Shown here: piece by piece, positions 1,347 to 59,034 of the stretch | Layout: each line of letters starts with the position of its first letter | Numbering within the stretch: position 1 is the stretch's first letter | Origin: an uncultured Acidobacteriota bacterium | GTDB taxonomy: Bacteria; Acidobacteriota; Vicinamibacteria; Vicinamibacterales; UBA2999 | Assembly (NCBI GenBank): GCA_963818645.1 | Contig: CAWFTF010000025.1 | Location: 32,828-96,827 of the forward strand | Direction: 5' to 3' | DNA length: 64,000 nucleotides | Program-made: the position numbers and the translations under genes | The notes under the pieces: model-generated | Databases searched by the model: none | Told to the model about the DNA's origin: nothing | What the model saw: only the letters and a program-made list of their open reading frames with translations

Positions 1347-1426
1347 GTCAACTCCCAACTCCCAATTTCCAACTCCCAAACACGGCGAAACTTTTGGAAG
1401 TTGGGCGTTGGGAATTGGGAGTTGAC
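1347..1426. repeat. Octamer-repeat hairpin, class A (CAACTCCC)n/(GGGAGTTG)n; putative bidirectional terminator
   Basis: Arms gtcaactcccaactcccaatttccaactcccaaa and tttggaagttgggcgttgggaattgggagttgac are near-perfect reverse complements around a 12-nt loop. Lies between convergent genes. Confidence 0.85.
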
Positions 1427-1440
1427 ACGCGCGTCAATGC

Positions 1441-2136
1441 CTAGAGACTCGCCGCTACGACACTCCGCGCCACCGGCGCGAACTTGTGCCGGTAGTAGCG
1501 AGTCCAAATGGCAATCGTCGGGATGCCGATGATCGTCGGCGCCAGCCACACCAGCAGAGAGAACGTCCCGACCCCGAGGTGGTTGGCATTGACGACGAGG
1601 AAAGCCGTCGTTGCGGCGATGCACGCGCCCAACATGCTTCCCATGTGCTCGAACCACCAATGCATCGGATGGGATGGCGGCCTGGTCCAATAGGCCAGAC
1701 GTCCACCGCCCACGAACAGGCCAACGAAGGAAAAGGCCGTGAAGAGCTGATGGCCGGTGCGGAGGCCGTAAAAGGCCGCCGCGACACTCGCGGCTGTGAG
1801 AAGCGCCGGTAGCCCTACGTCCCATGGGTGGCGATGCACGCCTGTTCGCGTCTTCGCGCGCAGCACCCGTATCCCTCCCGACACGCTGGTGGAGGTCAGG
1901 ATAGCGACAAAGAACAGGAAGGCCCCCGCTTCGCGCTCTTGCGCCGACGTGCCGGTGAGCCATCGCGTGCCAGCCAGCATGAACGCCGTGATCGCGACAA
2001 CGGTCATGCCGCTCACGAAGACCCAGCCGGCGCGACGATGGGTGACGCCGCCCTTTTTGGTCACGAGCGGAACGAGCATGGACAGCAGGGCGGCAGAGCC
2101 GCCGGCGATGTGCAGATACAGCAGTGACTTCAACAT
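1441..2136 (-). CDS. hypothetical polytopic membrane protein
   Basis: 231-aa ORF with about 6 hydrophobic helices and ordinary composition. The overlapping alternative ORFs are Arg/Pro-rich mirror ORFs. Confidence 0.7.
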   Translation of the reverse strand: MLKSLLYLHIAGGSAALLSMLVPLVTKKGGVTHRRAGWVFVSGMTVVAITAFMLAGTRWLTGTSAQEREAGAFLFFVAILTSTSVSGGIRVLRAKTRTGVHRHPWDVGLPALLTAASVAAAFYGLRTGHQLFTAFSFVGLFVGGGRLAYWTRPPSHPMHWWFEHMGSMLGACIAATTAFLVVNANHLGVGTFSLLVWLAPTIIGIPTIAIWTRYYRHKFAPVARSVVAASL

Positions 2137-2246
2137 GACGACATGATGCGCGTCGCGGGCGCTGAACGCATGTGCCGAAGGTCACGGGCGCCATCCATGA
2201 CTTCCGGCACGGGTCTCCCCAGGCTCGACGCCTCTACAATGACCGC

Positions 2247-3446
2247 ATGCGCGGAAGGCGGTGGCTGAACGTCGCGGCGCTGTCGACGTGGCTGTTGTGC
2301 GGCCTTCCGCAGAGCATCGCCATCGCGCGCGGCGAGTTTGCGGGCTGGCCGGCGACCATGTGGCTGACGGCGTATCTGCTGTATGGCGCGGCCCTCATCG
2401 TGTTTCTCGGACTCGGCCGCATGCGGGCGAGGCTCGGTTACTACGCCCCGCTGCTGGTCCTCGTCGTGCAAATGGTGACGGCGCTCGCCGTCGTGATGCT
2501 GTCGGTCGTGTATCTCCGCGGCACGAACTCCACTCCTGGCTTGTTCGTCGTCATCGCCGCACAACTCCCGTATCTCGCGTCGTCGAAGGGCCAGTCGGCT
2601 CGCCCGCAGACGCAGATCACCGTCAAGCCGGCTTGGATCTGGTCGATGCTCGGCGTGCTCACCCTGACGAATACGGCGTTTCTTTTTGCCGTCGAGCGCA
2701 CGTGGAGCGGCGCGTTGAGCTATGGGTTGAGCATGGGGGCGTTCATGCTGTTTGCCGCGGCGAGCTCGTTTCTCGTGCAAAGCGAAGCGGCGGCGCGCGA
2801 TGAGCTGGCGACTGTCAACAGGGAACTGCTGGGCACACGAGCGCTGCTTGCCGAGAGCAGCCGGGTCGAGGAGCGGCTGCGCATCTCGCGCGACCTGCAC
2901 GACACGCTGGGGCATCACCTGACTGCGCTGAGTCTTCAACTCGACGTCGCGGCGCGTCTCTCGGAGGGCAAGCCGGCGGATCACATCCGCCAGGCGCATG
3001 CCATCACACGGTTGCTCCTCGGCGACGTGCGTGATGTCGTGAGCCGCTTGCGGGAGACGAGTCAGCTCGACCTCGCGCAGGCCATTCGTTCGGCGGCGGC
3101 CGGACACGGCGAGGGCATGGCCATTCATCTCGATCTGCCCGACGCGCTGAGCGTCGAAGACACTTCACGCGCAGAGATTCTGCTTCGCTGTATCCAGGAG
3201 ATCATCACGAACACCGCTCGGCACGCACACGCGCGCAACCTCTGGATTCGATTGGAGGCACGGCCAGACGGCATCGCGCTACATGCTCGAGACGACGGCC
3301 GGGGCGCGGATGTCGTGGTGTTCGGCAACGGTCTGACCGGGATGCGCGAGCGTTTCGAGCAGTACGCTGGTCGCGTCGAGTTCACTCCCGGGCACGGCAC
3401 CGGCTTCGAGATCCGCGGCTTTCTTCCGACACCTGCCGCTGCATGA
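2247..3446 (+). CDS. sensor histidine kinase, HisKA_3 (NarL-partner) type
   Basis: H-box RISRDLHDTLGHHLTAL, ATPase boxes ITNTARHA, DDGRG and GNGLTGMRERF, and a multi-TM N-terminus. Start placed at ATG 2247 inside ORF 2172..3446. Confidence 0.9.
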   Translation: MRGRRWLNVAALSTWLLCGLPQSIAIARGEFAGWPATMWLTAYLLYGAALIVFLGLGRMRARLGYYAPLLVLVVQMVTALAVVMLSVVYLRGTNSTPGLFVVIAAQLPYLASSKGQSARPQTQITVKPAWIWSMLGVLTLTNTAFLFAVERTWSGALSYGLSMGAFMLFAAASSFLVQSEAAARDELATVNRELLGTRALLAESSRVEERLRISRDLHDTLGHHLTALSLQLDVAARLSEGKPADHIRQAHAITRLLLGDVRDVVSRLRETSQLDLAQAIRSAAAGHGEGMAIHLDLPDALSVEDTSRAEILLRCIQEIITNTARHAHARNLWIRLEARPDGIALHARDDGRGADVVVFGNGLTGMRERFEQYAGRVEFTPGHGTGFEIRGFLPTPAAA

Positions 3447-4087: not shown

Positions 4088-4268
4088 GCGGTCCGAAGGG
4101 GCGAAGGGGCGAGGGTGCGATGGTCCGGTGCGACGGTCCGATGGTCCGGTCCGACGGTCCGATGGTCCGGTCGCCCAGCGTGACGACGGACCTTCGCACC
4201 TCGGACCGGACCTTCGCACCCCGGACTGGACCGTCGCACCGCCGCCCCTTCGCCCCGTCGGACCGTGC
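4088..4268. repeat. Long imperfect hairpin of (CGAAGGGG)/(GGTCCGAY) octamers, class E
   Basis: The left half (gcggtccgaaggggcgaaggggcgagggtgcgatggtccgg...) is the approximate reverse complement of the right half (...ccgtcgcaccgccgccccttcgccccgtcggaccgtgc). Lies between convergent genes. Confidence 0.8.
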
Positions 4269-4276: not shown

Positions 4277-5585
4277 CTACGTCGACAGATCCCGCCGATA
4301 TGTCTCAGTGAAAGCCAGCGTCGACAGCCACGAGATGAGCGACATCGCCGTGATGTAGATGGTGATGAGCGTCGAGTCGCCGGTGGCGCTGAAGAGCGAC
4401 GTGGCGATGGCGGGGGAGAGCGCGCCGCCGAGAATCGTGCCGAGCGTCAGGCTCAGCGACGCGCCGCTGTAGCGCGTGGCCGTCGGGAACAGCTCGGAAA
4501 ACACCGCCGGTTGCGGACCGATGTAGGCCCCCTGAATCACCAGTATTCCGCAGAGTGCGATGCCGGCCAAAAGAACCGATCGGGTATCGGCCAACGGAAA
4601 GAAGACGAGCGACCAGAGCACGAGCGCGCCGTTTCCCCACTGCATGATTCGCCGACGGCCGAACCGATCGGACAAGACCGCGGAGACGAAAATCGACACC
4701 GCAAACAACACCGCAGCAATGAGAAGCAGCGCCAGGGTCGTTGTCAGCGGGAACTTGAGCTCGCGCGTGGCGTACGACACGAAGTAGACGATCACGATGT
4801 AGCCGAGCGTGCTGATGCCGATGTAGCTCCCGGCCGCGAGCATGACCGCGCGGGCGTCATGACGAAGCACGTCGACGATTGGCATGCGCCGCGCGGACTG
4901 TGCCTTGAGTACCTGCGCGAAGATCGGGCTCTCCGCAAGGCCCATGCGAACCCAGAGTCCGACGGCAACGAGCACCGCGCTGGCGATGAACGGAATACGC
5001 CATGCCCAATCGGCGAACGCCGCCGGTGACACCGCGCTCGATGTGACGAGGAACACGAGATTGGACAGGATGATTCCCGCTGGCAACCCGAGGGCGACGA
5101 AGCTCCCGAAGAACCCGCGACGTGATTGAGGTGCGTGCTCGACGGACATGAGCACGGCGCCACCCCACTCGCCACCCAGCGCGAACCCCTGCACGAATCG
5201 AAACGTGACGAGCAGGATCGGCGCCCAGACACCCAGTTGCGAATAGTTCGGCAGCAGACCGATGCCGAGCGTCGACAGCCCCATCAGCATCAGCGACCAC
5301 ACGAGCATCGACTTGCGTCCGAGGCGATCGCCGTAGTGACCCATCGCCACGCCGCCCAACGGTCGTCGCGATGAACCCGATGGCAAATGTGCCGAATGCC
5401 GCGAGCGTACCGGCGAGGTCCGACACCTGGGGGAAGAACTGCGGCGCAAAGACGACGGCCGCGGCAGTTCCGTAAATGAAGAAGTCGTACCACTCGATCG
5501 TGGTGCCGATTCCGCCCGCGAGCGCGACGCGGCGGGCTCCGAGGGCCGTTCGCTTGGTTTCGGTTGACGGGAGCGGAGTCGCCAT
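4277..5585 (-). pseudogene. MFS transporter, metabolite:H+ symporter (MHS)-like, frameshifted
   Basis: The N-terminus (IEWYDFFIYGTAAAVVF...AFGTFAIGFI) is in the ORF 4857..5585 frame. The rest (RPLGGVAMGHYGDRLGRKSML...) is in the ORF 4277..5449 frame. A 1-nt indel lies near 5363-5368. Confidence 0.85.
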
Positions 5586-5598
5586 CGGGGGATATTGT

Positions 5599-5680
5599 GT
5601 CCCGAACCTCGAATCCCGAACCTCGAATCCCGAATCCCGAATCCCGAATCCCGAGTCCCGAGTCCCGAGTCCCGAGTCGG
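5599..5680. repeat. Tandem octamer array, class B (CGAATCCC / CGAGTCCC), single arm
   Basis: About 10 consecutive 8-nt units are seen directly. Lies in a divergent promoter region between the MFS gene and the PQQ sugar dehydrogenase, with no complementary arm adjacent. Confidence 0.9.
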
Positions 5681-5718
5681 TACGGCCTATACTGATCGCT
5701 TCCGGAGGGAGCGCAGTT

Positions 5719-11383: not shown

Positions 11384-11457
11384 GTCAACTCCCAATCTCC
11401 AACTCCCAACTTCCAAACGTCGGTTGGAGGTTGGGAATTGGAGAGTTGGGAGTTTGC
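11384..11457. repeat. Octamer-repeat hairpin, class A
   Basis: gtcaactcccaatctccaactcccaacttccaa / ttggaggttgggaattggagagttgggagttt, located between convergent genes. Confidence 0.85.
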
Positions 11458-11460: not shown

Positions 11461-12360
11461 TTATTTCAGGTACCAGTGCCCCGCCAGGCTCACACCGACG
11501 CCACCGAGGTCATACCCGATCGCTGGCTCGTTGAACCAGCGGTAGCTCACCTGCGTGCTGATCGCAAACTGCGGCACGCTGGCGAACGACAACTCGCCTC
11601 CGCCGAAGAGCTGCGATCCGTAACGTGAGTCCGACATGTCGCCGAGCACCGGACTCGCGATCGAGGAGCGGTAGAAGTTGAGGCCGGCGCCGACATACGG
11701 GCGCAGCCACGTGTAGTCGGCGATGTGGTCGTTGAACGAAAACAGGACGCTCGGACCGAACTCGGTTGACGACATCGTGCCGAGATCGATCGGGTTCGAG
11801 ACCTCGTATCGCGACAGATCGAACTGAACGCCGACCCGCTTGTGCGACCATCCGCGCGCGGTCACGCCGAGACCAAAGGACGGACCACCCATGAGGGCGC
11901 CCACGCCGAACTTGTGCGTCGTTCCTGAAGACGATGGCGTGGTGGTGCGAACCGGCAGACGGTTGCCGGTCTGCGCAGGCTCAACCGCGGCGGACGTTGT
12001 TGTCACACGGGGTGATGACTGAGCGGTGGCACGCGGAGCAGGCGGGTTGCTCGGCAGCGGCGCGCCGGACGCCGCCGTGCCGTTCGACACGGCCCCATTC
12101 GACACGGAGCCCACGCTCACTCGCACGTACCCGACACCATCCGCGGCGGATGGCCACGCGACCTTCACCCAGTCACCAACGTTGCGCGTGACTGCGAGCC
12201 TGGTGCCGCGAGCAGCCTGGCCAATCACCGGGCTGGCGGTGCTCGGCGCCTTGTGCACACTCGCCGCCGACGCGTTGACTGTCAGTTCAGTGCCCTGGGC
12301 CGTCACCCATGACGGGCTCAACAACAGAACGATGACGACGGCTGCGGCATGACGAATCAT
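11461..12360 (-). CDS. secreted SH3b-domain protein fused to a small outer-membrane beta-barrel domain
   Basis: Signal peptide, then an SH3b-like segment (VHKAPSTASPVIGQAARGTRLAVTRNVGDWVKVAW), a P/S/T-rich linker, and a C-terminal ~150 aa of alternating beta-strand pattern like 8-stranded OMPs. Confidence 0.7.
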   Translation of the reverse strand: MIRHAAAVVIVLLLSPSWVTAQGTELTVNASAASVHKAPSTASPVIGQAARGTRLAVTRNVGDWVKVAWPSAADGVGYVRVSVGSVSNGAVSNGTAASGAPLPSNPPAPRATAQSSPRVTTTSAAVEPAQTGNRLPVRTTTPSSSGTTHKFGVGALMGGPSFGLGVTARGWSHKRVGVQFDLSRYEVSNPIDLGTMSSTEFGPSVLFSFNDHIADYTWLRPYVGAGLNFYRSSIASPVLGDMSDSRYGSQLFGGGELSFASVPQFAISTQVSYRWFNEPAIGYDLGGVGVSLAGHWYLK

Positions 12361-12496
12361 TTCGAACCTCCTGCTTCAACTTCCGGTTGCGTGGGCCAAC
12401 TGACGGTTCCGTGATCGACCCCGCGCACTGCTGCACGGAATTGACACGGTCAGGTGGGCCCCCGAGTGATCGGAGCAAAGGACGTGCTGGCAGGGG

Positions 12497-12655
12497 CAAT
12501 TTGTGATTTGCTGATCTTTGATTGTTGATTCGTTGTTGATTGATGATTGTTGATTGCTGATTCCGGATGGGTCGTTCGGAATCTCCAATAAATCACCAAT
12601 CAGCAATCGCCAATCGTCAACCGATCACCAATCAAAGATCGACAAATCACCAATG
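12497..12655. repeat. Long hairpin of GATTG-rich short units, class D
   Basis: The left arm caatttgtgatttgctgatctttgattgttgattcgttgttgattgatgattgttgattgctgattcc is complementary to the right arm ggaatctccaataaatcaccaatcagcaatcgccaatcgtcaaccgatcaccaatcaaagatcgacaaatcaccaatg. Lies between divergent genes. Confidence 0.85.
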
Positions 12656-13443: not shown

Positions 13444-15007
13444 AAGAGCAACTCGCGCTCCTGCCCGGTTACCTCACCGCGCACTTGCAGCTCACGCTGT
13501 TCGCGCTGCTGGCAGGGGCCGCGGTGAGTATTCCCGCCGGCATCGCGATCACACGCAGCCGTCGCCTCGAGCGCCCCGTGCTCGCGGTCGCCAGCGTGAT
13601 CCAGACTGTTCCCAGCCTCGCGCTGCTCGCGGTCATGGTGCCCGCGCTCTCGTCGCTGGGCCTGCGCAGCATCGGATTCCTTCCGGCGTTCATCGGCCTG
13701 ACGTTGTACAGCGTGCTGCCGGTGCTGCGGAACACGGTAACCGGATTCGCCGGGCTCGATCCCGCGCTCACGGAAGCGGCGCGCGGAGTCGGCATGACGT
13801 CGCGGCAGCAGTTGTGGCGAGTTGAACTGCCGCTGGCGCTGCCGGTGATTCTTGCCGGGCTTCGGACGTCGACGGTGTGGACGGTGGGGATGGCCACGCT
13901 GTCCACGCCGGTCGGTGCGCCGAGCCTCGGCAACTACATCTTCGCCGGTCTGCAGACGAGGAACCTGACTGCGGTGCTCGTCGGATGCGTGGCGGCTGCG
14001 GTGTTGGCACTGCTCCTCGACGGGTTGGTGCGCGCACTCGGTGCCGCAGTGCTCGCGCGCAAGGCGGTCGTCGCTGGTTGCCATCCTCGCCGTGTTCGGC
14101 CTGCTCTACGCGCACGCCACGATCGCGTTCGTGGCGTCAGCCACTCGAACAGGTCCGGCTCGGATCGTCGTCGGCGCGAAGACGTTCACCGAGCAATACA
14201 TCCTCGCGAGGGTTCTTTCGACGACGATCGCGAACGCCACGGGCAGTCAGGTGGACGTGTTGTCGTCTCTGGGTTCGACCGTCGCGTTCGATGCGCTTCG
14301 TGCCGGCGACATCGACGCCTACGTGGACTACTCCGGAACGATCTGGGCGACGATCATGCGTCGCGATGCCTCGTCCGTCGATCGCGAAACAGTGCTCCGA
14401 GAGGTCGGGCGCTACCTGAAGGACGAGCACGGCATCGAAGTCGTCGGCGCGCTCGGTTTCGAGAACGCGTATGCGATGGCCATGCGCCGTGCTCACGCCG
14501 CCAGTCTCAACGTGCGCAGCCTCAGCGATCTTGGCGCGCATGCCCCGCGGCTCGCGGTCGGTGGTGACTACGAGTTCTTCCAGCGGCCGGAATGGCGCGC
14601 GATTCAGGAACGATACGGGCTGCGCTTCCGAGAGCAGCGCAGCATGGACCCATCGCTGATGTATCAGGCCGTCGCAAACGACCAGGTCGATCTCATCGGC
14701 GCGTTCTCCACCGACGGCCGCATCGCTGCGCTCGACCTCGTGCTGCTGGAGGACGAGCGGCACGCGATTCCGCCGTATGACGCCCTCATCCTGGCAGGCG
14801 CTCGGCTCGTCCGCGAGCACCCCGATGCCATTGCCGCGCTGCGCGAGCCTGAACGGAGCCATCGACGCCGACCGCATGCGCCGCATGAATCTCGCGGTGG
14901 ACGAGGACGGGAAGTCGCCCGAGGTCGGTGCGCGGCAGACTTTTCGCCGAAGGTCAAAGGTCAAAGGTCAAAAGGTCAAAGGTAAAATTGATCTGGTAAA
15001 TGAGTGA
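13440..15007 (+). pseudogene. fused ABC permease / OpuAC-type substrate-binding protein, two frameshifts
   Basis: The permease (13440 frame) is good to ...LVRALGAAVLARK. The TM anchor plus SBP (KTFTEQYILARVL...) continues in the 14041 frame. The SBP C-terminus (LNGAIDADRMRRMNLAVDEDGKSPEVGARQ) is in a third frame from ~14847. The 3' end is uncertain (14985 or 15007). Confidence 0.75.
14948..14985. repeat. Tandem AAGGTCA(A) array, class F, single arm
   Basis: cgaaggtcaaaggtcaaaggtcaaaaggtcaaaggtaa seen directly. Overlaps the 3' end of the SBP reading frames. Confidence 0.85.
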
Positions 15008-17995: not shown

Positions 17996-18976
17996 ATGAA
18001 GATTACCGTGCTGACAGCTCTCGCGATGCTCGTGAGCGCGCCGGTGTTTGCGCAGGGGCAGGTCGAGGCCGCGGCCGCGGCGACACGTGGTCAGATCATC
18101 GACCTGGCAGGATCGTGGGCGAACCGCCTTCACGAAGACTGGATCGAGCGTGCACCTGGTCCGCATATCGGCGACTACAGCGGTCTGCCGATCAACGACG
18201 AAGCGCGGGCCTACGCCGACCTCTATCAGGTGTCGATGCAGAACATGCCTGAACGGCAGTGCATCCTCTACACCTCGCAGTACATCGTCATGGGGCCTCA
18301 GAACCTGCGCATCGAACCTGACGTCGATCCGATCTCGGGTGCGATCGTCGCGCTGCACATGACCGGCACGGTCGATCGCGCCCCCCACACGGTCTGGATG
18401 GACGGACGTGCCCATCCGTCGAAGAACGCACCGCACACGCCCGGTGGGTTCAGCACCGGCGTCTGGCAGGGCGGGACGGTTGTCGCACAGACGACGCACT
18501 TGAAAGCTGGTCTGGTGTGGAGGAACGGTGTGCCGCACAGCGATCAGGCCACGATCACCGAGTACTACGCGCGTCATGGCGACATGCTCACGATCACGAT
18601 GATCCTGAACGACCCGATCTATTACGAGGAGCCGTTCATTCGAAATGCGACGTTCGAGCTCGACCCGCAGACGCGAGTGTTGCCAGAGCCGTGTGAGCCG
18701 CAGGTCGAGATTCCGCGCGCGCCGGGCGTGGTGCCGCACTACTTGCCAGGTGAGAACCCGTATCTCAACGAATTCGCAGAGACATTCAACCTGCCACTCG
18801 AAGCGGTACGTGGTGGCGCGGCCACGACGTATCCCGAGTACGGAAAGAAGTTGAGGTCGACGTACAAGCCGCCGGCGAAGTGCACGGTGTACTGCTGCGG
18901 AGGCACGGGGCTGACCGTTCCCAATACGAACAACGCTGCGTGTCGTGAAGGCGACGCGCCCCCGCCGACTCCGTAG
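17996..18976 (+). CDS. secreted hypothetical protein (paralogue of 17160..17975)
   Basis: MKITVLTALAMLVSAPVFAQG signal, then IDLAGSWANRLHEDW...GDYSGLPINDEA...WRNGVPHSDQATITEYY...NDPIYYEEPF. The first 313 codons of ORF 17057.. are out-of-frame overlap. Confidence 0.75.
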   Translation: MKITVLTALAMLVSAPVFAQGQVEAAAAATRGQIIDLAGSWANRLHEDWIERAPGPHIGDYSGLPINDEARAYADLYQVSMQNMPERQCILYTSQYIVMGPQNLRIEPDVDPISGAIVALHMTGTVDRAPHTVWMDGRAHPSKNAPHTPGGFSTGVWQGGTVVAQTTHLKAGLVWRNGVPHSDQATITEYYARHGDMLTITMILNDPIYYEEPFIRNATFELDPQTRVLPEPCEPQVEIPRAPGVVPHYLPGENPYLNEFAETFNLPLEAVRGGAATTYPEYGKKLRSTYKPPAKCTVYCCGGTGLTVPNTNNAACREGDAPPPTP

Positions 18977-19012
18977 GCACGAAGCTCACGGAGGGCACGA
19001 AGACACGAAGAG
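18977..19012. repeat. Short tandem GCACGAAG-type array, class H
   Basis: ggcacgaagctcacggagggcacgaagacacgaagag lies immediately after the stop at 18976. Confidence 0.6.
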
Positions 19013-24784: not shown

Positions 24785-25828
24785 GTGACTCAACCCGCAC
24801 TTGGTCTGCTGTCGAGCGCCATCGTGATGGCGATCGCTCTGGGGTTCATCTCGCTTTTTGACTTCGGGACGTTCGCCGGATGGATCGCGTTCGTGATGCT
24901 CGGCCTTATTCCCATGCAGGTCGTCGCCGTGGTGCTCTGGGGTGGCAACCCTGCGTTCGCAAGCGGGCTGCGTCAGCCAGTGAAGGGCATCGTCCTGGTG
25001 CTGGTAACGGCGATCGCAACGGCTATCATCACTCCGCTGGTCTTCTTGACGGTGGGTGAGGGTGCCGCGCCGCCCGGACCGATCCCCTCACATTACGCTG
25101 TCATCGTCGTGCCGACGACGTTCTGGCTCACGATCATGATGGGTGGGTGGCCGTTCAATCGTGTGAGCTCGAACCCGATCGTTTCCGGTTTACTCACGCT
25201 GGTCGCGGCATACGTCGTGACGTACGTCGTCTTCCGAGTCTTCTTCAACTACGACTTCATGCAGGGCGCGCCGGTGTATCTCCAGTCGGCGCCGAAGGGG
25301 ATGTTCAACGGCGTGTCAGCGCTGGTGTTCTACGTCACGGCGCTCGCCGTCATGTTCCTCGTACTGTGCTTCGATCTCTGGCCGCTCACGTTGTCGCCCG
25401 GAATCATGAAGCAGCCTGTGCTTGGCCTCGTGTGGACGGCAATTGCGCTGATCGGCGCTGCACTTGCGATAACGATCGGGATCAACGGAGCCGGGGCGGA
25501 CCCGATGGCGTTTCTCACCGAGGTCACGGTTCCCTTCATCTTCGGCTCGATCATCGTCCTGAACATGCTGCAGAACTCGCTCTTCGCGCGAATGACGCAG
25601 CCCCTCAAAGGCGTGATGAACGCGATCGCGGCTGCCGCCGTGGGGTTGATACTCGCGCGCCTGTACATCTCGCTGGTGCCGATGGTGTCGGGACCGCTCA
25701 CCTCTGGCCCACCCGGATACGACCGCGAGATCTGGCTCGCCAACGCGCTTCTCAGCGTGACGTTCCCGTTCCTCATCTACCACGCTGTGTTCTTCGGGTT
25801 CTGGCCGCTGCTTCGAGCTAAGCAGTAG
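24785..25828 (+). CDS. hypothetical polytopic membrane protein
   Basis: 347 aa with about 9-10 TM helices, a GTG start and no recognised family. Confidence 0.7.
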   Translation: MTQPALGLLSSAIVMAIALGFISLFDFGTFAGWIAFVMLGLIPMQVVAVVLWGGNPAFASGLRQPVKGIVLVLVTAIATAIITPLVFLTVGEGAAPPGPIPSHYAVIVVPTTFWLTIMMGGWPFNRVSSNPIVSGLLTLVAAYVVTYVVFRVFFNYDFMQGAPVYLQSAPKGMFNGVSALVFYVTALAVMFLVLCFDLWPLTLSPGIMKQPVLGLVWTAIALIGAALAITIGINGAGADPMAFLTEVTVPFIFGSIIVLNMLQNSLFARMTQPLKGVMNAIAAAAVGLILARLYISLVPMVSGPLTSGPPGYDREIWLANALLSVTFPFLIYHAVFFGFWPLLRAKQ

Positions 25829-25854
25829 GCAGTAGGCGGTAGGCCCGTGGAGCG

Positions 25855-25893: not shown

Positions 25894-25906
25894 GAGACTT
25901 CGGAAT

Positions 25907-28046: not shown

Positions 28047-28055
28047 CGCTCGCGC

Positions 28056-28125
28056 GAACTCCCAAGGCGATGCCAACTCCCAACTCCCAAGATTGGGAGT
28101 TGGAAGTTGGGAGTTGGGAGTTGAC
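28056..28125. repeat. Octamer-repeat hairpin, class A
   Basis: gaactcccaaggcgatgccaactcccaactcccaa-ga-ttgggagttggaagttgggagttgggagttgac lies between convergent genes. Confidence 0.85.
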
Positions 28126-28128: not shown

Positions 28129-28800
28129 TTACTTGGCCTGAATATGAATTCCGCACTCGAGCTTCTGGCCCTGCCAGCGGCCCGAGCGCGGGTTCTGCGG
28201 ATCGAACGGCAGTTCCGTGCACGGCTCGCAGCCGATGCTCGTGTAGCCCAGTTCGTACAGCGGCAGCAGTGGAATGTCGTGCGCCTTCGCGTACGCCCAC
28301 ACGTCGCGCGCGGTCCAGCCAGCGATCGGCGCGACCCGGGAAATGGTCCTTCCGGGGAGCTTGAACGGCTCCACTTCTTTCAGGTTCGCGCGTGACGGCG
28401 ACTGATCGCGACGCAGCGCCGTGAACCACGTGTCGTAGCCTTCCAGCGCCGAGAACAGCGGCTCCACCTTGTGACGCTTGCAGCACGCCTCGGTGCTCTC
28501 GGCCTGCCACAGCCCGACGCTCGGCGTCTGCGCCCGAAGGTTGATCAGATTCAGTCCCCACCGCTCCGACAGTTCGTCGCGATACGCCAGCGTCTGCGCG
28601 AAGTGATGGAACGTGTCGAGGAACAGCACGGGGATATCTGGACGAACCTCGCGCAGCATGTGCGTGAGCACCACGCACTCGGCCTGAAAGCTCGACGTGA
28701 TGCACGGTGTCTGCGCGCTACTCAGCGCGCGCTCGATTGTTTGTCTTGCCTGGTCTACGAGTTCCGAATCCCGGACCCCGAGTCCCGAATCCCGGGTCAT
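28129..28800 (-). CDS. cysH: assimilatory adenylylsulfate (APS)/PAPS reductase, Fe-S type
   Basis: ECGIH C-terminal motif plus the CC (EACCKRHKVEPL) and CxxC (GCEPC) cysteine pairs typical of Fe-S APS reductases. The ATG overlaps the cysN stop (ATGA). The first ~12 codons are class B repeat. Confidence 0.9.
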   Translation of the reverse strand: MTRDSGLGVRDSELVDQARQTIERALSSAQTPCITSSFQAECVVLTHMLREVRPDIPVLFLDTFHHFAQTLAYRDELSERWGLNLINLRAQTPSVGLWQAESTEACCKRHKVEPLFSALEGYDTWFTALRRDQSPSRANLKEVEPFKLPGRTISRVAPIAGWTARDVWAYAKAHDIPLLPLYELGYTSIGCEPCTELPFDPQNPRSGRWQGQKLECGIHIQAK

Positions 28801-32736: not shown

Positions 32737-32770
32737 GGCCCGGAGGTTCACGCTTCCGGGCCTTTTTCTT
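32737..32770 (+). terminator. Rho-independent terminator
   Basis: ggcccgga-ggttcacgct-tccgggcc followed by tttttctt. Confidence 0.7.
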
Positions 32771-35977: not shown

Positions 35978-36009
35978 GGTCCACAGTCCACAGTCCTCAG
36001 TCCACGGTC
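35978..36009. repeat. Tandem octamer array, class C (GTCCACAG), single arm
   Basis: ggtccacagtccacagtcctcagtccacggtc lies directly after the transporter stop. Confidence 0.85.
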
Positions 36010-48602: not shown

Positions 48603-48604
48603 GC

Positions 48605-48714
48605 GGTCCACAGTCCACGGTCCTCGGTCCACGAGTCTCGGTTCTGCTCGAATCCCGAATCCCGAATCGCGAACCCCGAATCCCGAATCCCGAATCCCGG
48701 ATCCCGGGCCCCGG
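48605..48714. repeat. Composite array: class C (GTCCACRG) then class B (CGAATCCC) then CCCGGGNC units
   Basis: ggtccacagtccacggtcctcggtccacgag ... ctcgaatcccgaatcccgaatcgcgaaccccgaatcccgaatcccgaatcccggatcccgggccccgg. Confidence 0.9.
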
Positions 48715-48736
48715 TCGGCTGCGGTATTCTCGACGC

Positions 48737-52150: not shown

Positions 52151-53273
52151 CTAATACCTGGCGATGCGCACGCGCACCTGGCGTGGTTGTCCGGCTGCGG
52201 CTCGCGCGATCACGAACACCTCTGTCCCTCGCGCCAGGAGCCGTGGAGTCTTGAGCAGATACGGCGTTGGCCATTCTGCCGACGGATCGGTCAGCGCCAG
52301 CAGGACATCGGTGCCGCCATCAGGCCGCCGGGCCGACACTTCGAGCGTCGAGAGGCCGGCGACCATCTCGGGCTGGATCGCCCACACGCGCGTGTCGTTC
52401 GTCAGTCTGGCCCGCGTTTCGACCACGAGATCTGTCGCCGTTCGAGTTGCCGGAACCATCGCGAAGAAGACACCGAGCGTGCTGCGATCGGTTGCAGGCT
52501 CACTCGTCCCGCGGTAGTGAACGTCGACGACGATGCGAGACCGCGCGGGCAAACGATAGGCGACATCGTCAGGCAAGCTGACGAAGGTATGCCACGGTGT
52601 CCAGCTGCCGAGCCACTGTCCTGTGCTTTCGAGGCTGAACGTTGCCCCACGCACGACGCGACGATCGCCGGGCATGAACTCGAGTCCTCGCACCTGGACA
52701 GTCGCAGTCAGGCCGAGATCGATCACGACCCTTCTTTGTCGTGTCGGTCGCCTTCGCCTCAATTGCGATCGGCTGCAGCGGCCGTAAGAGGTCGGGCTGA
52801 CCCAGTTGCCAGTGATCCGTATGCGGCGTGGCGCGGATCTCTCGTGTCGCGGAAGCGTTCGGATCGACAACGTTGAGAAATACCTTGCCGCCGTTTCGCG
52901 GTCCAAGTCCTTCGACCCACGACACGAGGAACTGCGATTCGCGCAGCGTCAGGTGGTTGTCGTTGACGAAGTCACCGTATCCGGCCACTGCCGACCAGGG
53001 AGGCATGTGGCGACGCAGCACGGACGCTCGCATCGCCCGGCCCTGCAGCCACGTCTGCTCGTAGGTCTCGAGCGGAAACGACAGCCCCTTGTCCATGTGA
53101 CACATCACGCATCGTTGGTCCAGGATCCGCACGATCTCCCGATCGAACAGCACTGTCGTCGTCAGCGACCCATGCGATTGCACTCCCTGTGGCCATGCGA
53201 TGACAAGCGCAATTCCTAGAGCCAAGAGCCCAGAGACCAAAGCCGAGAGTCGGGAGCCCAGAGCCCGGCTCAT
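52151..53273 (-). pseudogene. monohaem c-type cytochrome domain protein with beta-sandwich C-terminal domain, one frameshift
   Basis: FDREIVRILDQRCVMCH (CxxCH) in the N-terminal frame. The C-terminal frame (VVIDLGLTATVQVRGLEFMPGDRRVVRGATF...) starts at ~52740. ATGA overlap with the upstream gene. Confidence 0.7.
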
Positions 53274-54340
53274 CGCTCCCGCACCTCGAACGTCGTCACG
53301 AACGTGTGGACCGTGTCGCGACGCCTGAACTGCGTCCACGCTCGATAGCGGCCAGGCTTCGGCATCAAGCCGTCGAAGATCACCCGGGGACCGCCGCGCA
53401 GTTTCTCGAGATCGGCACCCGGCGGGATCAGGAACTGCGGCATGTCTTCGTCGTCGTTCCCGCCGGGAACGATGTCGAGCGAGTGCGAGTGGACGTACTC
53501 GTTGAGGTCTTCGCTCATGATGAGCGTGTGCCCGAACGCGCCGAGGTAGGTCTGCAGATCGGTGACCGGTTGTCCTGTCGCGGTGTCTGTCAGATCGAAC
53601 TGAAGATGACCGTAGAGCCCTGCGACGAACGGCGCTGGATCGTAGCTGACCTTCGCCGTGAGATCGTCCATCGTCTGCGTGTTAATGGCATCCGGAGTGA
53701 GCCGCGCAGAGTCGCCCGCGAGATCGCCTCGGTAACCGGCTGTCACCAGCGGGCGTGCGATGAACTGTGATGCGCCACCGGCAGGAAGGAAGTCGGACAG
53801 GACCTTGTAATAGCCAGCCTTCGGCAGCGTCACGTCGATGACCCACGTGCCATCCGGCTGAAGCTCGGGATGGATGTGCTGAAAGTGAGTCATATCCTGA
53901 CTGATGACGAACAGGTGATATTGACGCTCGTGCACAGTCTCGAACTTCAGGATGCGTTCGCCTGTGCCCGGATGAGAGATGCGAAACTGCCACTTCGCGG
54001 GCTTGCCGGCCTGGACGACAGCCGGTTCGGTGGTGAGCTCGAGCCCGTAGTCGCGGACGTCGAATGGCGCACCGCGCACGAGCGCCATGCCGCAGCGCGG
54101 ACACGTGCCTGCGATGTCGAGCGTGTAGTCCGGATGCATCGGGCACACGAACGCTGTTTCAACATCGGTTGAATCGGATCCCGGGCCCCGGGCCCCGGGT
54201 CCCGGTGACTGCTGCGCCTGAACGAACAGCGTCACCAGCAGGCAGAACGACAGCGTGACGATCGCGGCGAAGGCAGGATGTGCGAGCCGCGAGCGGAACA
54301 GGAGCGACGTCCAGCGTTCAGCGATGCGGGCTCGTCGCAT
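53270..54340 (-). CDS. secreted protein with heavy-metal-binding domain (CPMHP...CPRCGM)
   Basis: FVCPMHPDYTLDIAGTCPRCGMALV, followed by Ig-like domains (HERQYHLFVISQDMTHFQHIHPE). The start (54340 or 54349) overlaps the upstream gene. Confidence 0.75.
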   Translation of the reverse strand: MRRARIAERWTSLLFRSRLAHPAFAAIVTLSFCLLVTLFVQAQQSPGPGARGPGSDSTDVETAFVCPMHPDYTLDIAGTCPRCGMALVRGAPFDVRDYGLELTTEPAVVQAGKPAKWQFRISHPGTGERILKFETVHERQYHLFVISQDMTHFQHIHPELQPDGTWVIDVTLPKAGYYKVLSDFLPAGGASQFIARPLVTAGYRGDLAGDSARLTPDAINTQTMDDLTAKVSYDPAPFVAGLYGHLQFDLTDTATGQPVTDLQTYLGAFGHTLIMSEDLNEYVHSHSLDIVPGGNDDEDMPQFLIPPGADLEKLRGGPRVIFDGLMPKPGRYRAWTQFRRRDTVHTFVTTFEVRER

Positions 54341-56269: not shown

Positions 56270-56352
56270 CAAACTCCCAACTCCCAACTCCCAACGACCA
56301 ACTTCCAACACGTTGGAGGTTGGGCGTTGGCGCACGTATCAGATTGGGAGTT
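56270..56352. repeat. Octamer-repeat hairpin, class A
   Basis: caaactcccaactcccaactcccaacgaccaacttccaaca / cgttggaggttgggcgttggcgcacgtatcagattgggagtt lies between two co-oriented minus-strand genes. Confidence 0.8.
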
Positions 56353-57379
56353 ATGAAGCTGGCACGAACGCCAGAAATCGGCGCGGATTGTCGATGGTGA
56401 TCCGGCGGAGCATCTCGTCAGTCACGCCTGCCTTGCGCAGCTTCGGAGCGAACACGGTCAGCGTGATCCCATACCCCGGCCGGGCGTCGCTGCGTGCGGT
56501 GAAGTTGTAGTCGGACGACAAGAGCAGGCGATCGATGTACCCCGCGTCCAGGAAGGCGAGGATCATCGCCACCTTCTTGTCGTCGGGCACCAGCCCGCCG
56601 GTCACGCGGTCAAAGCCGACATAGGCGCCGCGTTTGGCAATCTCTTTGACGACTTCCGCGGAGGGATCGTCGAGGCAGCAACTGTGGCCAATCGCCACGC
56701 GTCCGGGGCTGACGCCGACCGACTCGAACGCGTCGAGTTGCCTGAGGCCGGCGTCCTTCGGCACGTTGGGTCCGGTGCCGTAGGCGTTGTGCGTGAAGAT
56801 CGGAAGGTGGTTGCGGAGGTGTGCCCTGCCCACGGCGCGAAACACCTTTCGTTCAGCGGCGCTCATCGGCGCGTCGGGTGTTTCGCCGATCTCCCCGAAG
56901 GCGCCGTACCTGGCGGCATTCGCGTCGCTGACGAGGTCGTCAGCAATCTGGTCTTCAGATTTCGCCGCGACATCCTGCGGATAGGTGCGCTCCATGTACA
57001 GGCCGCCGCAGGCCACGATGTGCACGCTGGTGCGCGACGCGATCTGTCTGAGCAGGGCGTTGTCGCGGCCGACGTCGTTGGTGCCCGCATCGACGATGCA
57101 GCCGATGCCTTCGGCCGCGGCAACGTCGAGCTGCTCGAGCACTGGTGCGGCATCCTTGGCCGGACCCGACCTGTTCGACTGGGGAGCCACGCGCGCCCAC
57201 TCGAACGACAGGTGCTCGTGAAACAGCGTCGCCCTGTTGAGTGTGTCGGGCGAGACGTCCCTGAGCACCGTCCGAATCGTCGCGCCCTTTGGAAACGTGA
57301 GCGCTTCGCGTGACGCGGGCGTCTGCAGAGGCGCCACCGCGGCGCAGGCGAGAAGTCGCAGTATCTCCCGGCGATCCAC
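56351..57379 (-). CDS. phosphotriesterase-related (PTE family) amidohydrolase with Tat-like signal
   Basis: MDRREILRLLACAAV..., an LFHEHL HxH motif, and a 342-aa TIM-barrel hydrolase-like sequence. Confidence 0.85.
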   Translation of the reverse strand: MDRREILRLLACAAVAPLQTPASREALTFPKGATIRTVLRDVSPDTLNRATLFHEHLSFEWARVAPQSNRSGPAKDAAPVLEQLDVAAAEGIGCIVDAGTNDVGRDNALLRQIASRTSVHIVACGGLYMERTYPQDVAAKSEDQIADDLVSDANAARYGAFGEIGETPDAPMSAAERKVFRAVGRAHLRNHLPIFTHNAYGTGPNVPKDAGLRQLDAFESVGVSPGRVAIGHSCCLDDPSAEVVKEIAKRGAYVGFDRVTGGLVPDDKKVAMILAFLDAGYIDRLLLSSDYNFTARSDARPGYGITLTVFAPKLRKAGVTDEMLRRITIDNPRRFLAFVPAS

Positions 57380-57415
57380 GGTGCGGATTATAACGTCGGC
57401 CTGTAACCGTGAACT

Positions 57416-58360
57416 GTGAACTGTGATCTGCTGTGGATGAGTCGTCGCGTGTCACAGCCGCGCGGCTCATCCGTCTTCGTACCGGAGAATAGATGGTGTG
57501 ACTCAAGGTGGAAGCTGCTGTTGACGGCGTTTGAAGGATTGCGCGGCCGGCTCTTTGGCCTCGCCTATCGCATGCTCGGCTCGCGCGCCGACGCTGAGGA
57601 CATCGTGCAGGAAGCGTACGTGCGCTGGCACGAGGTGACGAAGGACAGGATTGACAATCCGGAAGCGTGGCTCGTCACCACTACGTCGAGGCTGGCCATC
57701 GACCGGTTGCGACGGCTCAAGACCGAACGTGAGGCGTACGTCGGCCAATGGCTGCCGCAACCGATCGTGACCGACACGCCTCCGGATCGTCACCTCGATC
57801 TCGCCGACGATCTCTCGATGGCGTTCCTCACGCTGCTCGAACGGCTTGCGCCCGAAGAGCGAGCCGCCTTTCTCCTGCACGACGTGTTCGACGTCGGCTA
57901 CCCGGAAATCGCCTCCGTCATCGAGAAGACCGAATCTGCCGCCCGGCAGGTCGTCCATCGTGCGCGCGAACGAGTGCGTGGCGAGCGCAAGCGCTTCGAT
58001 GTCAGCGAGTCTGCAAAGGAAACACTGCTGCAGCGCTTCCTTGCGGCCACCGAGGCACGAGACGAGCAGGCCGTGCTCGCATTGTTCGCACCCGACGCCA
58101 CGTGGACGGCCGACGGCGGTGGCAAGGCTGCTGCCGCACTGCGTCCGATCGTCGGCGCCGATCGCATCGCCACGCTGGTCATGGGGCTGTATGAAAGGTT
58201 CTGGACAAACGGACGCACGCTGGAGCTCGGCACCATCAACGGCGAGGCCGGGCTGTGCCTCCGCGATGGCGCTCACCTCATCGCGACGATGTCGATCGCT
58301 ACGGATGGGGAGCAGATTCTCGCCGTCTACGCCGTGGTGAATCCGGACAAGCTCGGGTAG
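57416..58360 (+). CDS. ECF sigma factor, ECF41/SigJ-like with SnoaL-like C-terminal extension
   Basis: LFGLAYRMLGSRADAEDIVQEAYVRW plus the three ECF41 signature motifs: WLPQP, DGGGK and NPDKL. The exact start is uncertain. Confidence 0.85.
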   Translation: MNCDLLWMSRRVSQPRGSSVFVPENRWCDSRWKLLLTAFEGLRGRLFGLAYRMLGSRADAEDIVQEAYVRWHEVTKDRIDNPEAWLVTTTSRLAIDRLRRLKTEREAYVGQWLPQPIVTDTPPDRHLDLADDLSMAFLTLLERLAPEERAAFLLHDVFDVGYPEIASVIEKTESAARQVVHRARERVRGERKRFDVSESAKETLLQRFLAATEARDEQAVLALFAPDATWTADGGGKAAAALRPIVGADRIATLVMGLYERFWTNGRTLELGTINGEAGLCLRDGAHLIATMSIATDGEQILAVYAVVNPDKLG

Positions 58361-58417
58361 CGGGCGCTGTCACAACGCGCCCTGCCCACCCGTCTTCGCT
58401 GTAGAAGGAGACGGACC

Positions 58418-58885
58418 ATGAATACCCGAATCGACGTCAGGAAGTACATCAGTTCCAGCCTGACCCAGGCGCTGCTCAAGCTCTCATTCGAATCGCAAAA
58501 ACATCTCGAGCATTCACTTCTCAGGCTCGTCGAGATCCGTGCATCACAGATCAACGGCTGTGCCTATTGTCTCGACATGCACACCAAAGATGCGCGTGCC
58601 GCCGGTGAAACGGAGCAGCGCATCTACACACTCGACGCGTGGCGCGAGACGCCGTTCTTCACCGATCGCGAGCGTGCCGCGCTCGAGTGGACGGAGGCCG
58701 TGACGCTTGTCGCTGAAACGCGCGTTCCCGACGATGTCTACGAGCAGGTGAGGCAGCAGTTCAGCGAAGAAGAACTCGTCGAGCTGACGTTCGCCGTCAT
58801 CGTCATCAACAGCTGGAATCGCCTCAACGTGTCGTTCCGGCCGCTCGTCGGCGACTATCAGCCGAAGGCGGTGGTGGCAGTCTGA
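58418..58885 (+). CDS. carboxymuconolactone decarboxylase (AhpD-like) family protein
   Basis: VEIRASQINGCAYCLDMH (CxxC AhpD-like motif), 155 aa. Confidence 0.9.
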   Translation: MNTRIDVRKYISSSLTQALLKLSFESQKHLEHSLLRLVEIRASQINGCAYCLDMHTKDARAAGETEQRIYTLDAWRETPFFTDRERAALEWTEAVTLVAETRVPDDVYEQVRQQFSEEELVELTFAVIVINSWNRLNVSFRPLVGDYQPKAVVAV

Positions 58886-58893
58886 ATCTCGTC

Positions 58894-59034
58894 GATTGTT
58901 GATTTGGGGATCTTTGATTGTTGAGTCGTTGATGATCGGGGATTGCTGATTGGGGATTGTGGTACACCTGTTTTCAATCTCCAATCACGAATCAGCAATC
59001 AACAACGAATCGCCAATCAAAGATCCTTAAATCA
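58894..59034. repeat. Long hairpin of GATTG-rich short units, class D
   Basis: gattgttgatttggggatctttgattgttgagtcgttgatgatcggggattgctgattggggattg is complementary to caatctccaatcacgaatcagcaatcaacaacgaatcgccaatcaaagatccttaaatc. Lies between convergent genes. Confidence 0.85.

Follow-up and report, generated by a model that had tools for sequence, protein, structure and literature searches.

Intergenic heptanucleotide arrays resembling long simple sequence repeats, some of them hairpin-forming, in a Vicinamibacterales chromosome

Introduction

What are the short tandem units that occupy intergenic spacers in the chromosome of an uncultured Vicinamibacterales bacterium (Acidobacteriota), and what builds them? 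We addressed this question in a stretch of 64,000 nucleotides (nt) of contig CAWFTF010000025.1, hereafter the window. A first-pass annotation had described arrays of 7-8-nt units here, most of them arranged as array, loop and inverted array, and saw in them no described element type. Intergenic heptamer arrays, hairpin-forming and inverted ones included, are however known (PMC2670836, PMC4692102). The window thus holds a known kind of repeat in a new host phylum, and the feature is real, non-random and dynamic; new are the high share of hairpins, their concentration between convergent genes and the switching of families between strains at a single slot. The elements are very likely heptanucleotide long simple sequence repeats (LSSRs), equivalent to the short tandemly repeated repetitive (STRR) sequences of cyanobacteria, and their turnover is, with good probability, driven by slippage.

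STRRs are 7-bp head-to-tail repeats; one genome has several families of them, spread over many intergenic loci. A hairpin fold is possible for some copies, for example between hupS and hupL, and roles in transcript stability, translational coupling and termination have been proposed (PMC2670836). The GGGAATC repeats of Xanthomonas and the GGGGAYT repeats of Nostoc are intergenic heptameric simple sequence repeats (SSRs), sometimes found as inverted pairs between convergent genes; their sites are shared by related species with much variation in length and sequence, and they form G-quadruplexes (G4) in vitro (PMC4692102). As summarised in later papers, the survey of Mrazek (2007, via PMC4679880, PMC4692102) found heptamers to be the commonest LSSR class in most of the prokaryotic genomes covered and LSSRs with a unit that is not a multiple of three to be mostly non-coding, and slippage together with the ~7-nt contact length of the replicative polymerase was proposed as the cause of the heptamer preference. 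TAACTGA repeats are common to Beggiatoaceae, cyanobacteria and Bacteroidetes (MacGregor 2015, PMC4679880).

Results

Seven-nucleotide arrays in intergenic spacers

Regions with at least 12 of 14 lag matches were counted for each period and compared with Markov shuffles of the window. Period 7 is represented by 16 regions versus 0.7 expected, period 8 by two, period 9 by one and periods 10-12 by none; the 15 regions of period 6 are mostly codon repeats in coding DNA. A stricter periodicity score retains eight regions of period 7 (0.0 in shuffles) and none of period 8. The window arrays are thus head-to-tail 7-nt units beyond chance length, as LSSRs are, and Tandem Repeats Finder (TRF) called an array at each position where the first-pass annotation had placed one, the sequences also being inspected. 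Of the 7-8-nt unit length given there, the heptamer is borne out and the octamer is not enriched: apparent 8-mers arise because a heptamer is read together with the first base of the next unit, and 7- and 8-nt units are mixed only at 4089-4266. The rule of seven is strong and not absolute, since in two of the relatives introduced below arrays of period 9 (three copies of GATCCCTGC, L166:9340-9385) or 9-10 (CGGTCCGAA-type units, L134:3620-3700) lie in slots used by heptamers elsewhere. Within the BlaR-like M56 gene, a coding repeat at 27440-27574 (GCCGCAGCCTCAGCC..., period 6/24/30) specifies a stretch of low complexity, rich in Ala, Ser and Pro, and has no relation to the heptamer arrays.

The curated gene map is 90% coding and leaves 53 spacers, 8 convergent, 7 divergent and 38 co-directional. 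Despite this density 15 of the 19 arrays overlap coding DNA by no more than 7 nt, in line with the non-coding placement of LSSRs; the exceptions are 54180 (wholly coding), 14950 (last codons), 57401 (overlapping a predicted gene start by 15 nt) and coding-edge cases. Two arrays, 14950-14987 and 54180-54205, enter coding DNA. The arrays take up almost all of their spacer, and 14 of the 18 intergenic ones begin 0-20 nt from a stop codon.

About ten unit classes are found at the 19 loci, AACTCCC at five and AATCCCG at three to four, and the dominant units read out as G3N4 (GGGAGTT, GGGATTC, GGGACTC, GGGCTCT). The count of at least seven unrelated units in the first-pass annotation was too high, because several units grade into each other inside single arrays. 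CAACTCC, CGAGTCC, CGAATCC, CGGATCC and CGGGCCC are joined by steps of one base, and these units and CGAACCT show such gradation at 5600-5678 (CGAACCT to CGAATCC to CGAGTCC), 28764-28798 and 48646-48714 (CGAATCC to CGGATCC to CGGGCCC) of the window as well as in L021, L094, L122 and L025; at other acidobacterial loci CAACTCC continues into CAAGCCC/CGAGCCC/CGAGTCC, CAAACCC/CGAACCC, CAACGCC or CAAAGTC. The graded units (CAACTCC, CGAATCC, CGGGCCC and kin) are one C3N4 superfamily, from which GATTG, AAGGTCA, GTCCACA, GCAGTAG, CTGTGAA and GGTCCGA/CGAAGGGG stand apart as separate classes. Variant units are clustered in runs within arrays: adjacent units differ at 1.10 positions and units at least three apart at 2.65, which 0 of 2000 permutations reach, a statistic that register shifts after 1-nt indels partly inflate.

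Turnover of arrays between strains

Syntenic loci were drawn from seven further assemblies, namely L001/L002 (~92% nt identity), L003/L004 (~78%), L165 (major facilitator superfamily (MFS) protein 96% identical to that of the window) and L166-L169, and from 39 metagenome loci around the SH3-domain gene 11461-12360. Nine slots are comparable between the window and these relatives. Among relatives 78-96% identical we see four kinds of change: in unit number, in the dominant variant, in the presence or absence of whole arrays, and by a swap of the whole spacer between two hairpin families in strains ~96% identical. Unit-number variation and class switching, for which the first-pass annotation had proposed that strains be compared, are therefore both observed.

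At 53.2k the window is exactly 21 nt (three units) longer than L001 and L002, and at 25.8k it has 3.3 units and L002 4.5, where L004 carries (GAACGAA/GAACGGA)x8 and L003 nothing. Copy number thus varies by whole units at these two slots, as in LSSRs, in a sample with few informative cases and with 1-nt indels too. The dominant variant differs at 5.6k, with (CGAATCC/CGAGTCC)x11 in the window versus (CGAACCC)x9 in L165; L166 and L169 have no array there and a spacer of ~25 nt. A 115-nt composite block (48605-48719), with GGC at both borders, is wholly missing from the 48.6k slot of L001 and L002, and at 50.15k the same two genomes carry an unrelated plain hairpin instead of the heptamer array. 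The CCGAATC-type array at 28.76k is replaced by (GGAGTTG)x4 in L004 and by two GGAGTTG-like units in L002, and is missing in L003. CAACTCC hairpins at 28.05k have different unit counts in the window, L002 and L003, and L004 has the empty site TGACGATTTAC; the 1346..1427 hairpin is missing in L165, L166 and L169. The GTCCACA array at 35979..36009 has the same copy number in L001 and differs by point changes only.

The convergent SH3/efflux slot at 11.4k is occupied by a CAACTCC hairpin in the window, L127, L128, L132, L133 and L136, by a GGTCCGA-type hairpin of ~160 nt in L126, L129, L130, L134 and L165, by a GTAG-headed palindrome resembling repetitive extragenic palindromic (REP) elements in L131, L157 and L166, and by a plain hairpin in L139; in L135, L137 and L138 it is empty of elements. 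Fifteen of the 18 genomes compared therefore have a strong hairpin here, drawn from four unrelated sequence types, and the view of the first-pass annotation that architecture outlasts sequence stands at this slot. In L126 the flanking genes are 95.9% and 91.2% identical to those of the window and the entire stop-to-stop spacer is different; this jump in identity suggests that homologous recombination of the flanks moves spacer alleles. The GATTG hairpin at 12.5k is more persistent. It is kept in L126, L128, L132, L136, L157 and L165, at protein identities as low as 65%; L130, L131 and L133 retain one arm, and L134, L135 and L137-139 lack the element.

The REP-like palindromes (GTAGGGCGGGTCT..AGACCCGCC plus GGGTCC..GGACCC) lie at L131:1396-1505, L157:3890-3975 and L166:2210-2295, in the convergent slot taken by the heptamer hairpin in the window, and a second REP-like type (CGGGGGCTGAAGCCCCCGC.CTAC) was seen at L037:2360-2585. 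No GTAG-headed palindrome was found in the 64-kb window.

Short direct repeats border three filled sites (48602-48722, 5586-5700 and 28046-28130, with GGC, CGG and TGACG) in comparison with the empty sites of L001/L002, L166/L169 and L004. Target-site duplication would leave such repeats, and so would the loss of palindromic or repetitive DNA by microhomology-mediated deletion.

The elements are almost certainly not an artefact of assembly or sequencing. The window does contain two frameshifted genes, as an error-prone long-read assembly would; however, the independent JGI metagenome assemblies L127 and L128 have the same hairpins at 96-100% identity, and arrays orthologous to those of the window are present in another five assemblies from ENA, JGI and NCBI. 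Absence from independent assemblies, which the first-pass annotation had named as the outcome that would speak for an artefact, is thus not what we see.

Hairpin loci and convergent spacers

Hairpin architecture is present at seven of the 19 loci (1346, 4089, 11384, 12499, 28056, 56272 (partial) and 58900), with folding energies (dG) of -35 to -153 kcal/mol and z-scores of -6.5 to -12.8 versus shuffles. The remaining 12 loci hold one-sided arrays whose folds are no more stable than those of shuffles (z -0.7 to +2.0), so that the earlier description of most arrays as hairpins was an overstatement. Since the folds are about equally stable on both strands, the transcribed strand cannot be inferred from them. 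Hairpins lie in 5 of 8 convergent spacers versus 2 of 45 other spacers (hypergeometric p about 4e-4). The statement that the elements usually lie between convergent genes accordingly holds for the hairpins (5 of 7) and fails for the arrays as a whole (6 of 19).

In two families the copies are related beyond their periodicity. The element at 4089..4266 is ~75% identical from end to end to elements in L126, L129, L130, L134 and L165, in the same or another slot, and the GATTG elements 58900-59034 and 12499-12654 are 72-75% identical over their length and have GATCTTTGATTGTTGA / CAATCAAAGATC in common. The first-pass annotation had set the elements apart from REP elements and miniature inverted-repeat transposable elements (MITEs) too firmly in this respect, as GGTCCGA and GATTG copies are homologous over their full length across loci.

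A box CAGCACG-N4-TTTGCTC at ~12478-12494 (-), ~125 nt upstream of the SH3-domain gene, adjoins the GATTG hairpin. It is conserved in L126-L139, L157 and L165, down to 54% protein identity, and resembles a sigma-54 -24/-12 promoter, but with AG instead of the expected GG.

Hairpins as possible transcript ends

The rarity of canonical terminators claimed by the first-pass annotation is supported: the terminator consensus matches 30 times versus about 36 expected over 60 kb, which is not above chance, and two matches are textbook ones. These intrinsic terminators, at 32734-32765 (+) and 31119-31092 (-), have 10-14-bp GC stems and a T-run; the latter stands upstream of cysD (30128-31087, -), hence in its leader, and could be an attenuator. 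The heptamer hairpins have the stable G+C-rich stem-loop of an intrinsic terminator, with stems of 30-85 bp that are much longer than typical. No whole heptamer hairpin was returned by the consensus scan, only an 8-bp sub-stem at 12616-12597 (-) within 12499-12654, and among the arrays inspected a T-rich stretch flanks 11384-11454 alone, on one side.

Selection on structure, one of two readings offered in the first-pass annotation, lacks covariation support in the single family analysed: in the GATTG hairpin the paired columns are invariant, 1 of 38 pairs is double-changed and the covariation term is unfavourable. Its invariant cores and uncompensated spacers are explained no less well by conservation at the level of sequence, or by concerted evolution, than by RNA structure. 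The strong stem-loop that is nearly always found at 11.4k is the best hint at a function and fits a need for a transcript end or a site permissive for insertion. From the sequences and by analogy, we tentatively suggest that the hairpins may serve, or be retained, as transcript-end structures without a U-tract, in termination or in 3'-end protection, a role to which we give somewhat less than an even chance.

Distribution across phyla

An exact scan for (CAACTCC)x3, with one genome per species, gave at least 120 matches; among those listed, ~49 are cyanobacterial, 23 acidobacterial, 11 planctomycete, 11 from Bacteroidota and 26 from other groups. The 23 other acidobacterial loci contain 65 arrays of period 7 versus two of period 8, and the 8-kb loci of all groups hold many more period-7 arrays with other units, periods 5, 8 and 9 being scarce. 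An inverted partner lies within 200 nt of the CAACTCC array in 10 of 25 acidobacterial and 4 of 55 cyanobacterial arrays, in 1 of 12 planctomycete arrays, in none of 11 from Bacteroidota and in 3 of 27 others; the hairpin arrangement is therefore characteristic of Acidobacteriota, though not exclusive to them. The data do not mark CAACTCC as special across phyla; in viral contigs two permuted controls are commoner than it (14 and 26 stretches vs 6). Searching the literature on Acidobacteria and Vicinamibacter turned up no report of heptamer repeats.

Array loci and genome context

The 19 loci are listed in Table 1. The gene content of the window is unremarkable, with transporters, dehydrogenases, genes of sulfate assimilation and a BlaI/BlaR pair. 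Its G+C content is 64%, and the best named matches to the TonB-dependent receptor 41721-44372 are from Vicinamibacterales metagenome-assembled genomes, with soil-metagenome relatives at 84-100% identity. An Rfam scan of the window at gathering thresholds reported tRNA-Cys alone, so the elements are covered by no known RNA family.

Table 1. Heptamer array loci of the window, hairpins first (dG in kcal/mol).
Position	Arrangement	Units	Fold and TRF values	Location
1346..1427	hairpin, 12-nt loop	(CAACTCC)x4.4, (GGAGTTG)x4.4	35-nt arms, 86% complementary; dG -48, z -7.9	convergent: FtsX-type permease 3-1325 (+) / DUF2306 1441-2136 (-)
4089..4266	hairpin, 178 nt	GGTCCGA/CGAAGGGG family	dG -153.5, z -12.8	convergent: response-regulator gene (stop 4084) / MFS gene (stop 4277)
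11384..11454	hairpin, 7-nt loop	CAACTCC arms	dG -48.6, z -8.2	fills 77-nt convergent spacer: RND pump gene (stop 11383) / SH3-domain gene (stop 11461)
12499..12654	hairpin, 156 nt	GATTG family: (nnGATTG)n, loop, (CAATCnn)n	64-nt arms, 81%; dG -75.9, z -9.9	divergent: SH3-domain gene / opuA-like ABC operon
28056..28123	hairpin	CAACTCC arms	dG -43.2, z -6.5	convergent: BlaR-like M56 gene (stop 28046) / PAPS-reductase gene (stop 28129)
56272..56335	partial hairpin	(AACTCCC)x5, then shorter inverted arm	dG -35.2, z -6.6	15 nt past stop of phosphotriesterase gene 56351-57379 (-)
58900..59034	hairpin, 135 nt	GATTG family	60-nt arms, 80%; dG -68.8, z -7.9	convergent: CMD-family gene (stop 58885) / 59047-62199 (-) gene
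5600..5678	one-sided, 11 units	CGAACCT/CGAATCC, then CGAGTCC	TRF score 103; z +0.5	133-nt divergent spacer, 14 nt from MFS start codon, beside TATACT box; G4 motif on minus strand
14950..14987	one-sided	(AAGGTCA)x5.3	z +0.8	overlaps last ~10 codons of OpuAC gene 14041-14985
18976..19011	weak, irregular	CACGAAG repeats	TRF period 9, 66% matches	starts at stop codon
23706..23734	one-sided	(GGAGTTG)x4	z +0.7	32 nt past homogentisate dioxygenase stop, 17 nt before next start
25822..25844	one-sided	(GCAGTAG)x3.3		immediately upstream of BlaI-type operator and promoter
28764..28798	one-sided	CCGAATC/CCGGACC/CCGAGTC x5		cysN-stop/PAPS-reductase junction; G4 motif on minus strand
35979..36009	one-sided	(GTCCACA)x4.4	z +1.3	8 nt past stop codon
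48606..48714	composite, one-sided	(GTCCACA)x4, (CGAATCC)x8, CGGATCC/CGGGCCC	TRF score 95; z +2.0	starts 3 nt past stop codon, ends 22 nt before M28 peptidase start codon
50150..50221	composite, one-sided	(GGATTCG)x6 + (GAGAGCC)x4	97% matches (TRF); z -0.7	fills convergent spacer: M28 peptidase gene (stop 50149) / 50218 (-) gene; G4 motif on plus strand
53218..53266	one-sided	(AGAGCCC)x7		3 nt past stop of 53270-54340 (-) gene
54180..54205		(CCCGGGC)x3.7		wholly coding: SPGPGARGPGS linker in heavy-metal-binding-domain protein
57401..57430	one-sided	(CTGTGAA)x4.4		short divergent spacer before ECF sigma-factor gene

In the OpuAC substrate-binding protein the C-terminal tail KVKGQRSKGQR comes from the AAGGTCA units; the same slot has both arms, as a hairpin, in L136 and a short two-armed version in L130. 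CACGAAG runs similar to those at 18976..19011 were found in L094 and L004. The BlaI/MecI-type operator 25858-25895 (TACGAAGAATTTCGT ... TACGAAATCAATCGTA), with an embedded TTGACA, stands upstream of the Penicillinase_R and Peptidase_M56 gene pair and is kept in L002-L004, while the heptamer array adjoining it upstream switches class.

Two genes are split over two frames: the MFS transporter gene 4277-5585 (-), whose product has 435 aa in relatives, and the TonB-dependent outer-membrane protein gene 32826-35970 (+). Either these are pseudogenes, or long-read assembly has introduced indel errors. A segment of ~7.5 kb at 31.8k-39.4k, with tRNA-Cys at 38669-38743, a gene for a TonB-type outer-membrane protein, a DUF6152 gene and small open reading frames, is present in the window and L001 and missing in L002-L004, where the cys genes directly adjoin the TauE gene; it may be an insertion beside a tRNA gene.

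Discussion

Origin and possible function of the arrays

As a whole, the material is probably best explained by heptameric SSRs that originate through slippage and recombination and whose hairpins lie at transcript ends. The arrays would be built and remodelled in place as 7-nt units slip in replication or undergo unequal exchange, and homologous recombination of flanking genes would carry whole spacer alleles from strain to strain. Copies made of an array, a loop and an inverted array are predicted to form very stable stem-loops on both strands, concentrated between convergent genes, and a role at transcript ends has likewise been proposed for REP elements, bacterial interspersed mosaic elements (BIMEs) and STRR hairpins. 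One-sided arrays would be unstructured spacer DNA before promoters and start codons, and several may form G4. The slippage-type mechanism, which the first-pass annotation had also offered, gains from the three-unit indel, the replacement of dominant variants between strains and the likeness of adjacent units; whole-unit indels, variant replacement, variant gradients and adjacent-unit likeness are all as slippage or unequal exchange predicts.

Several observations weigh against this explanation. Slippage alone leaves unexplained why few unit classes recur (AACTCCC in 5 of 16 arrays, and the class again in L003 and L004), why GGTCCGA and GATTG copies are homologous from end to end across loci, and how complementarity between the two arms is maintained; the GGTCCGA and GATTG families may therefore have a mobile-element component. 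Some relatives do without any element at the slots compared, and the sixth convergent spacer to hold arrays (50150) is occupied by one-sided ones without a strong fold. At independent acidobacterial loci two of six placeable CAACTCC hairpins are convergent, by crude gene calls. A proper U-tract is missing from every hairpin, though two canonical terminators exist in the window, and in the GATTG hairpin the variable dinucleotides between the invariant 5-nt cores show no compensation.

The hairpin families (GGTCCGA/CGAAGGGG, GATTG, perhaps CAACTCC) could instead be non-autonomous mobile elements, either MITEs or of the type of REP elements and their doublets (REPINs), inserted by a transposase encoded elsewhere, with the periodicity acquired secondarily by slippage. 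Full-length homology with common non-periodic signatures (GGTCCGA, GATTG) and the presence of the GGTCCGA element at two convergent slots (4089, 11384) are what such elements would give, but paralogous copies just 72-75% identical speak against a recent burst, and the loops of the CAACTCC hairpins all differ and so are not copies of one master. Presence/absence and clean replacement between strains ~96% identical point the same way as the homology, whereas the identity shift across the swapped 11.4k spacer indicates ordinary homologous recombination; the 3-5 bp direct repeats at three filled sites (GGC, CGG, TGACG) are inconsistent and equally expected from microhomology-mediated deletion of palindromes. 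True GTAG-headed elements do compete for the 11.4k slot in relatives, and in L034 the CAACTCC arms enclose an unrelated 90-nt insert in the manner of terminal inverted repeats, yet the window elements lack the conserved GTAG head, and neither the scan of 30 window proteins nor the gene calls of relatives yielded a transposase or a Y1/RAYT (REP-associated tyrosine transposase) domain. We regard a mobile origin as unlikely. A view of the arrays as functionless mutational by-products, with hairpins gathering in convergent spacers because promoters and ribosome-binding sites are absent there, is less easily set aside, though still rather doubtful. It accounts for rapid turnover and loss in close relatives, for the lack of covariation in the GATTG hairpin, for arrays that spill into the ends of coding regions and for the weaker convergent association at independent acidobacterial loci. 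It accounts poorly for an SH3/efflux slot nearly always filled by a strong hairpin of one of four unrelated types, and for a GATTG element still present at the one site in relatives with protein identity as low as 65%.

The same persistence has another aspect: the 5-nt GATTG core is invariant on both arms down to that identity and the 2-nt spacers vary freely and uncompensated, a sign that sequence and not pairing is conserved, as if arrays were regulatory docking platforms that offer one site per 7 nt to a DNA- or RNA-binding protein with sequence specificity. Models for this are the ctx promoter of Vibrio cholerae, with its TTTTGAT heptads, and the sites of a post-transcriptional regulator proposed for TAACTGA repeats. 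The GATTG element stands immediately upstream of the conserved promoter-like box and no more than ~20 nt from a divergent start codon, other arrays abut a TATACT box (5600) and the BlaI-type operator (25822), and few unit classes recur. Unit classes in either orientation nevertheless swap at one slot, which is hard to square with a specific binder; close relatives do without the array, no candidate binding protein was identified, and concerted evolution of repeats could equally give invariant cores, so that we consider docking improbable. A unifying GGA (CsrA-like) motif, judged by eye in ~5 of 12 unit classes, was not convincing. Still less probable is that the G3N4 classes act as G4/i-motif modulators of transcription or translation, as proposed for the Xanthomonas GGGAATC repeats. 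Five of six G4 motifs of the window do lie in heptamer arrays (~1.3 motifs expected in shuffles), and the dominant units are G3N4, like GGGAATC and GGGGAYT (PMC4692102). But the G-rich strand has no consistent orientation to neighbouring genes, duplex pairing would outcompete G4 in hairpin copies, and GATTG, AAGGTCA, GTCCACA, GCAGTAG and CTGTGAA are not G4-capable, yet have the same 7-nt period and locations; these non-G-rich classes rule out G4 as the common denominator of all arrays.

Slippage and recombination of heptameric SSRs remain our preferred explanation. One extension of it, which we think improbable, would make the hairpins the main bidirectional transcript-end device of Vicinamibacterales, renewing itself by heptamer slippage and fold-back copying of arms. 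A bolder variant would have the recurrence of CAACTCC-type units in Acidobacteriota, Cyanobacteria, Planctomycetota and Bacteroidota reflect a conserved sequence-specific generating or binding activity, beyond slippage.

The arrays bear on a question as old as 1990, namely why 7-nt units are favoured and what STRR-type arrays do. Soil metagenome assemblies (78-96% identity), in which slots are empty, filled, resized or switched in family, are a natural experiment for it. If the hairpins end transcripts, they would explain how convergent genes are delimited in a phylum with few canonical terminators, and terminator and operon prediction in Acidobacteriota would be affected. The arrays are also hotspots of assembly and alignment ambiguity and potential markers for strain typing.

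Comparison with known repeat systems

REP elements and BIMEs are imperfect palindromes past stop codons, often between convergent genes and variable between strains, that act as mRNA 3'-end stabilisers or are terminator-like. The window hairpins, like REP/BIME elements and REPINs, are packed into spacers past stop codons, often convergent, and vary between strains; unlike them, they have no GTAG head, no fixed unit of ~35 nt and no associated RAYT gene, and their arms are tandem heptamers. REP/REPIN elements occur as many near-identical copies, and the window paralogues are 72-75% identical. MITEs have terminal inverted repeats, target-site duplications of one fixed length and copies of uniform size; in the window elements the arms are inverted repeats, the border repeats vary in length and sequence, and copies are 70-180 nt long.

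Like those LSSRs (5-11 nt) in the survey of Mrazek whose unit is not a multiple of three, the window arrays are mostly non-coding; that survey was statistical and predates Vicinamibacterales genomes, and its summaries do not treat hairpin arrangement or strain-level replacement. With the TAACTGA repeats the window shares the occurrence of one heptamer across distant phyla, in intergenic DNA and often just upstream of start codons. Those repeats have a single dominant unit and 169 direct sets to 1 inverted, whereas the window has many units and a third of its loci inverted. The likeness to the Xanthomonas and Nostoc SSRs extends to intergenic G3-4N3-4 heptamers, some inverted pairs between convergent genes, G4 potential and the sharing of sites between relatives with strong variation in length and sequence. 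The window units are GGGATTC and GGGAGTT, many window classes are not G-rich, and the description of those SSRs includes no composite hairpins of the length seen here, where arms reach 85 nt.

The canonical units of STRR1-3 are CCCCAGT, TTGGTCA and CAACAGT, and none of them is among the TRF rows of the window. Since these units are absent and the host is not a cyanobacterium (an acidobacterium of 64% G+C, where STRR hosts are filamentous cyanobacteria), the window arrays are STRR-like and not STRRs in the strict sense. Window arrays are also shorter, typically 3-11 units, than cyanobacterial ones (up to 14 or more), and acidobacterial CAACTCC arrays are far more often inverted (10/25) than cyanobacterial ones (4/55). 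With STRRs they nevertheless have in common 7-bp units, several families at many intergenic loci of one genome, and copies capable of forming hairpins, here seven, and CAACTCC itself is tandem in many cyanobacteria (49 of the 120 matches listed).

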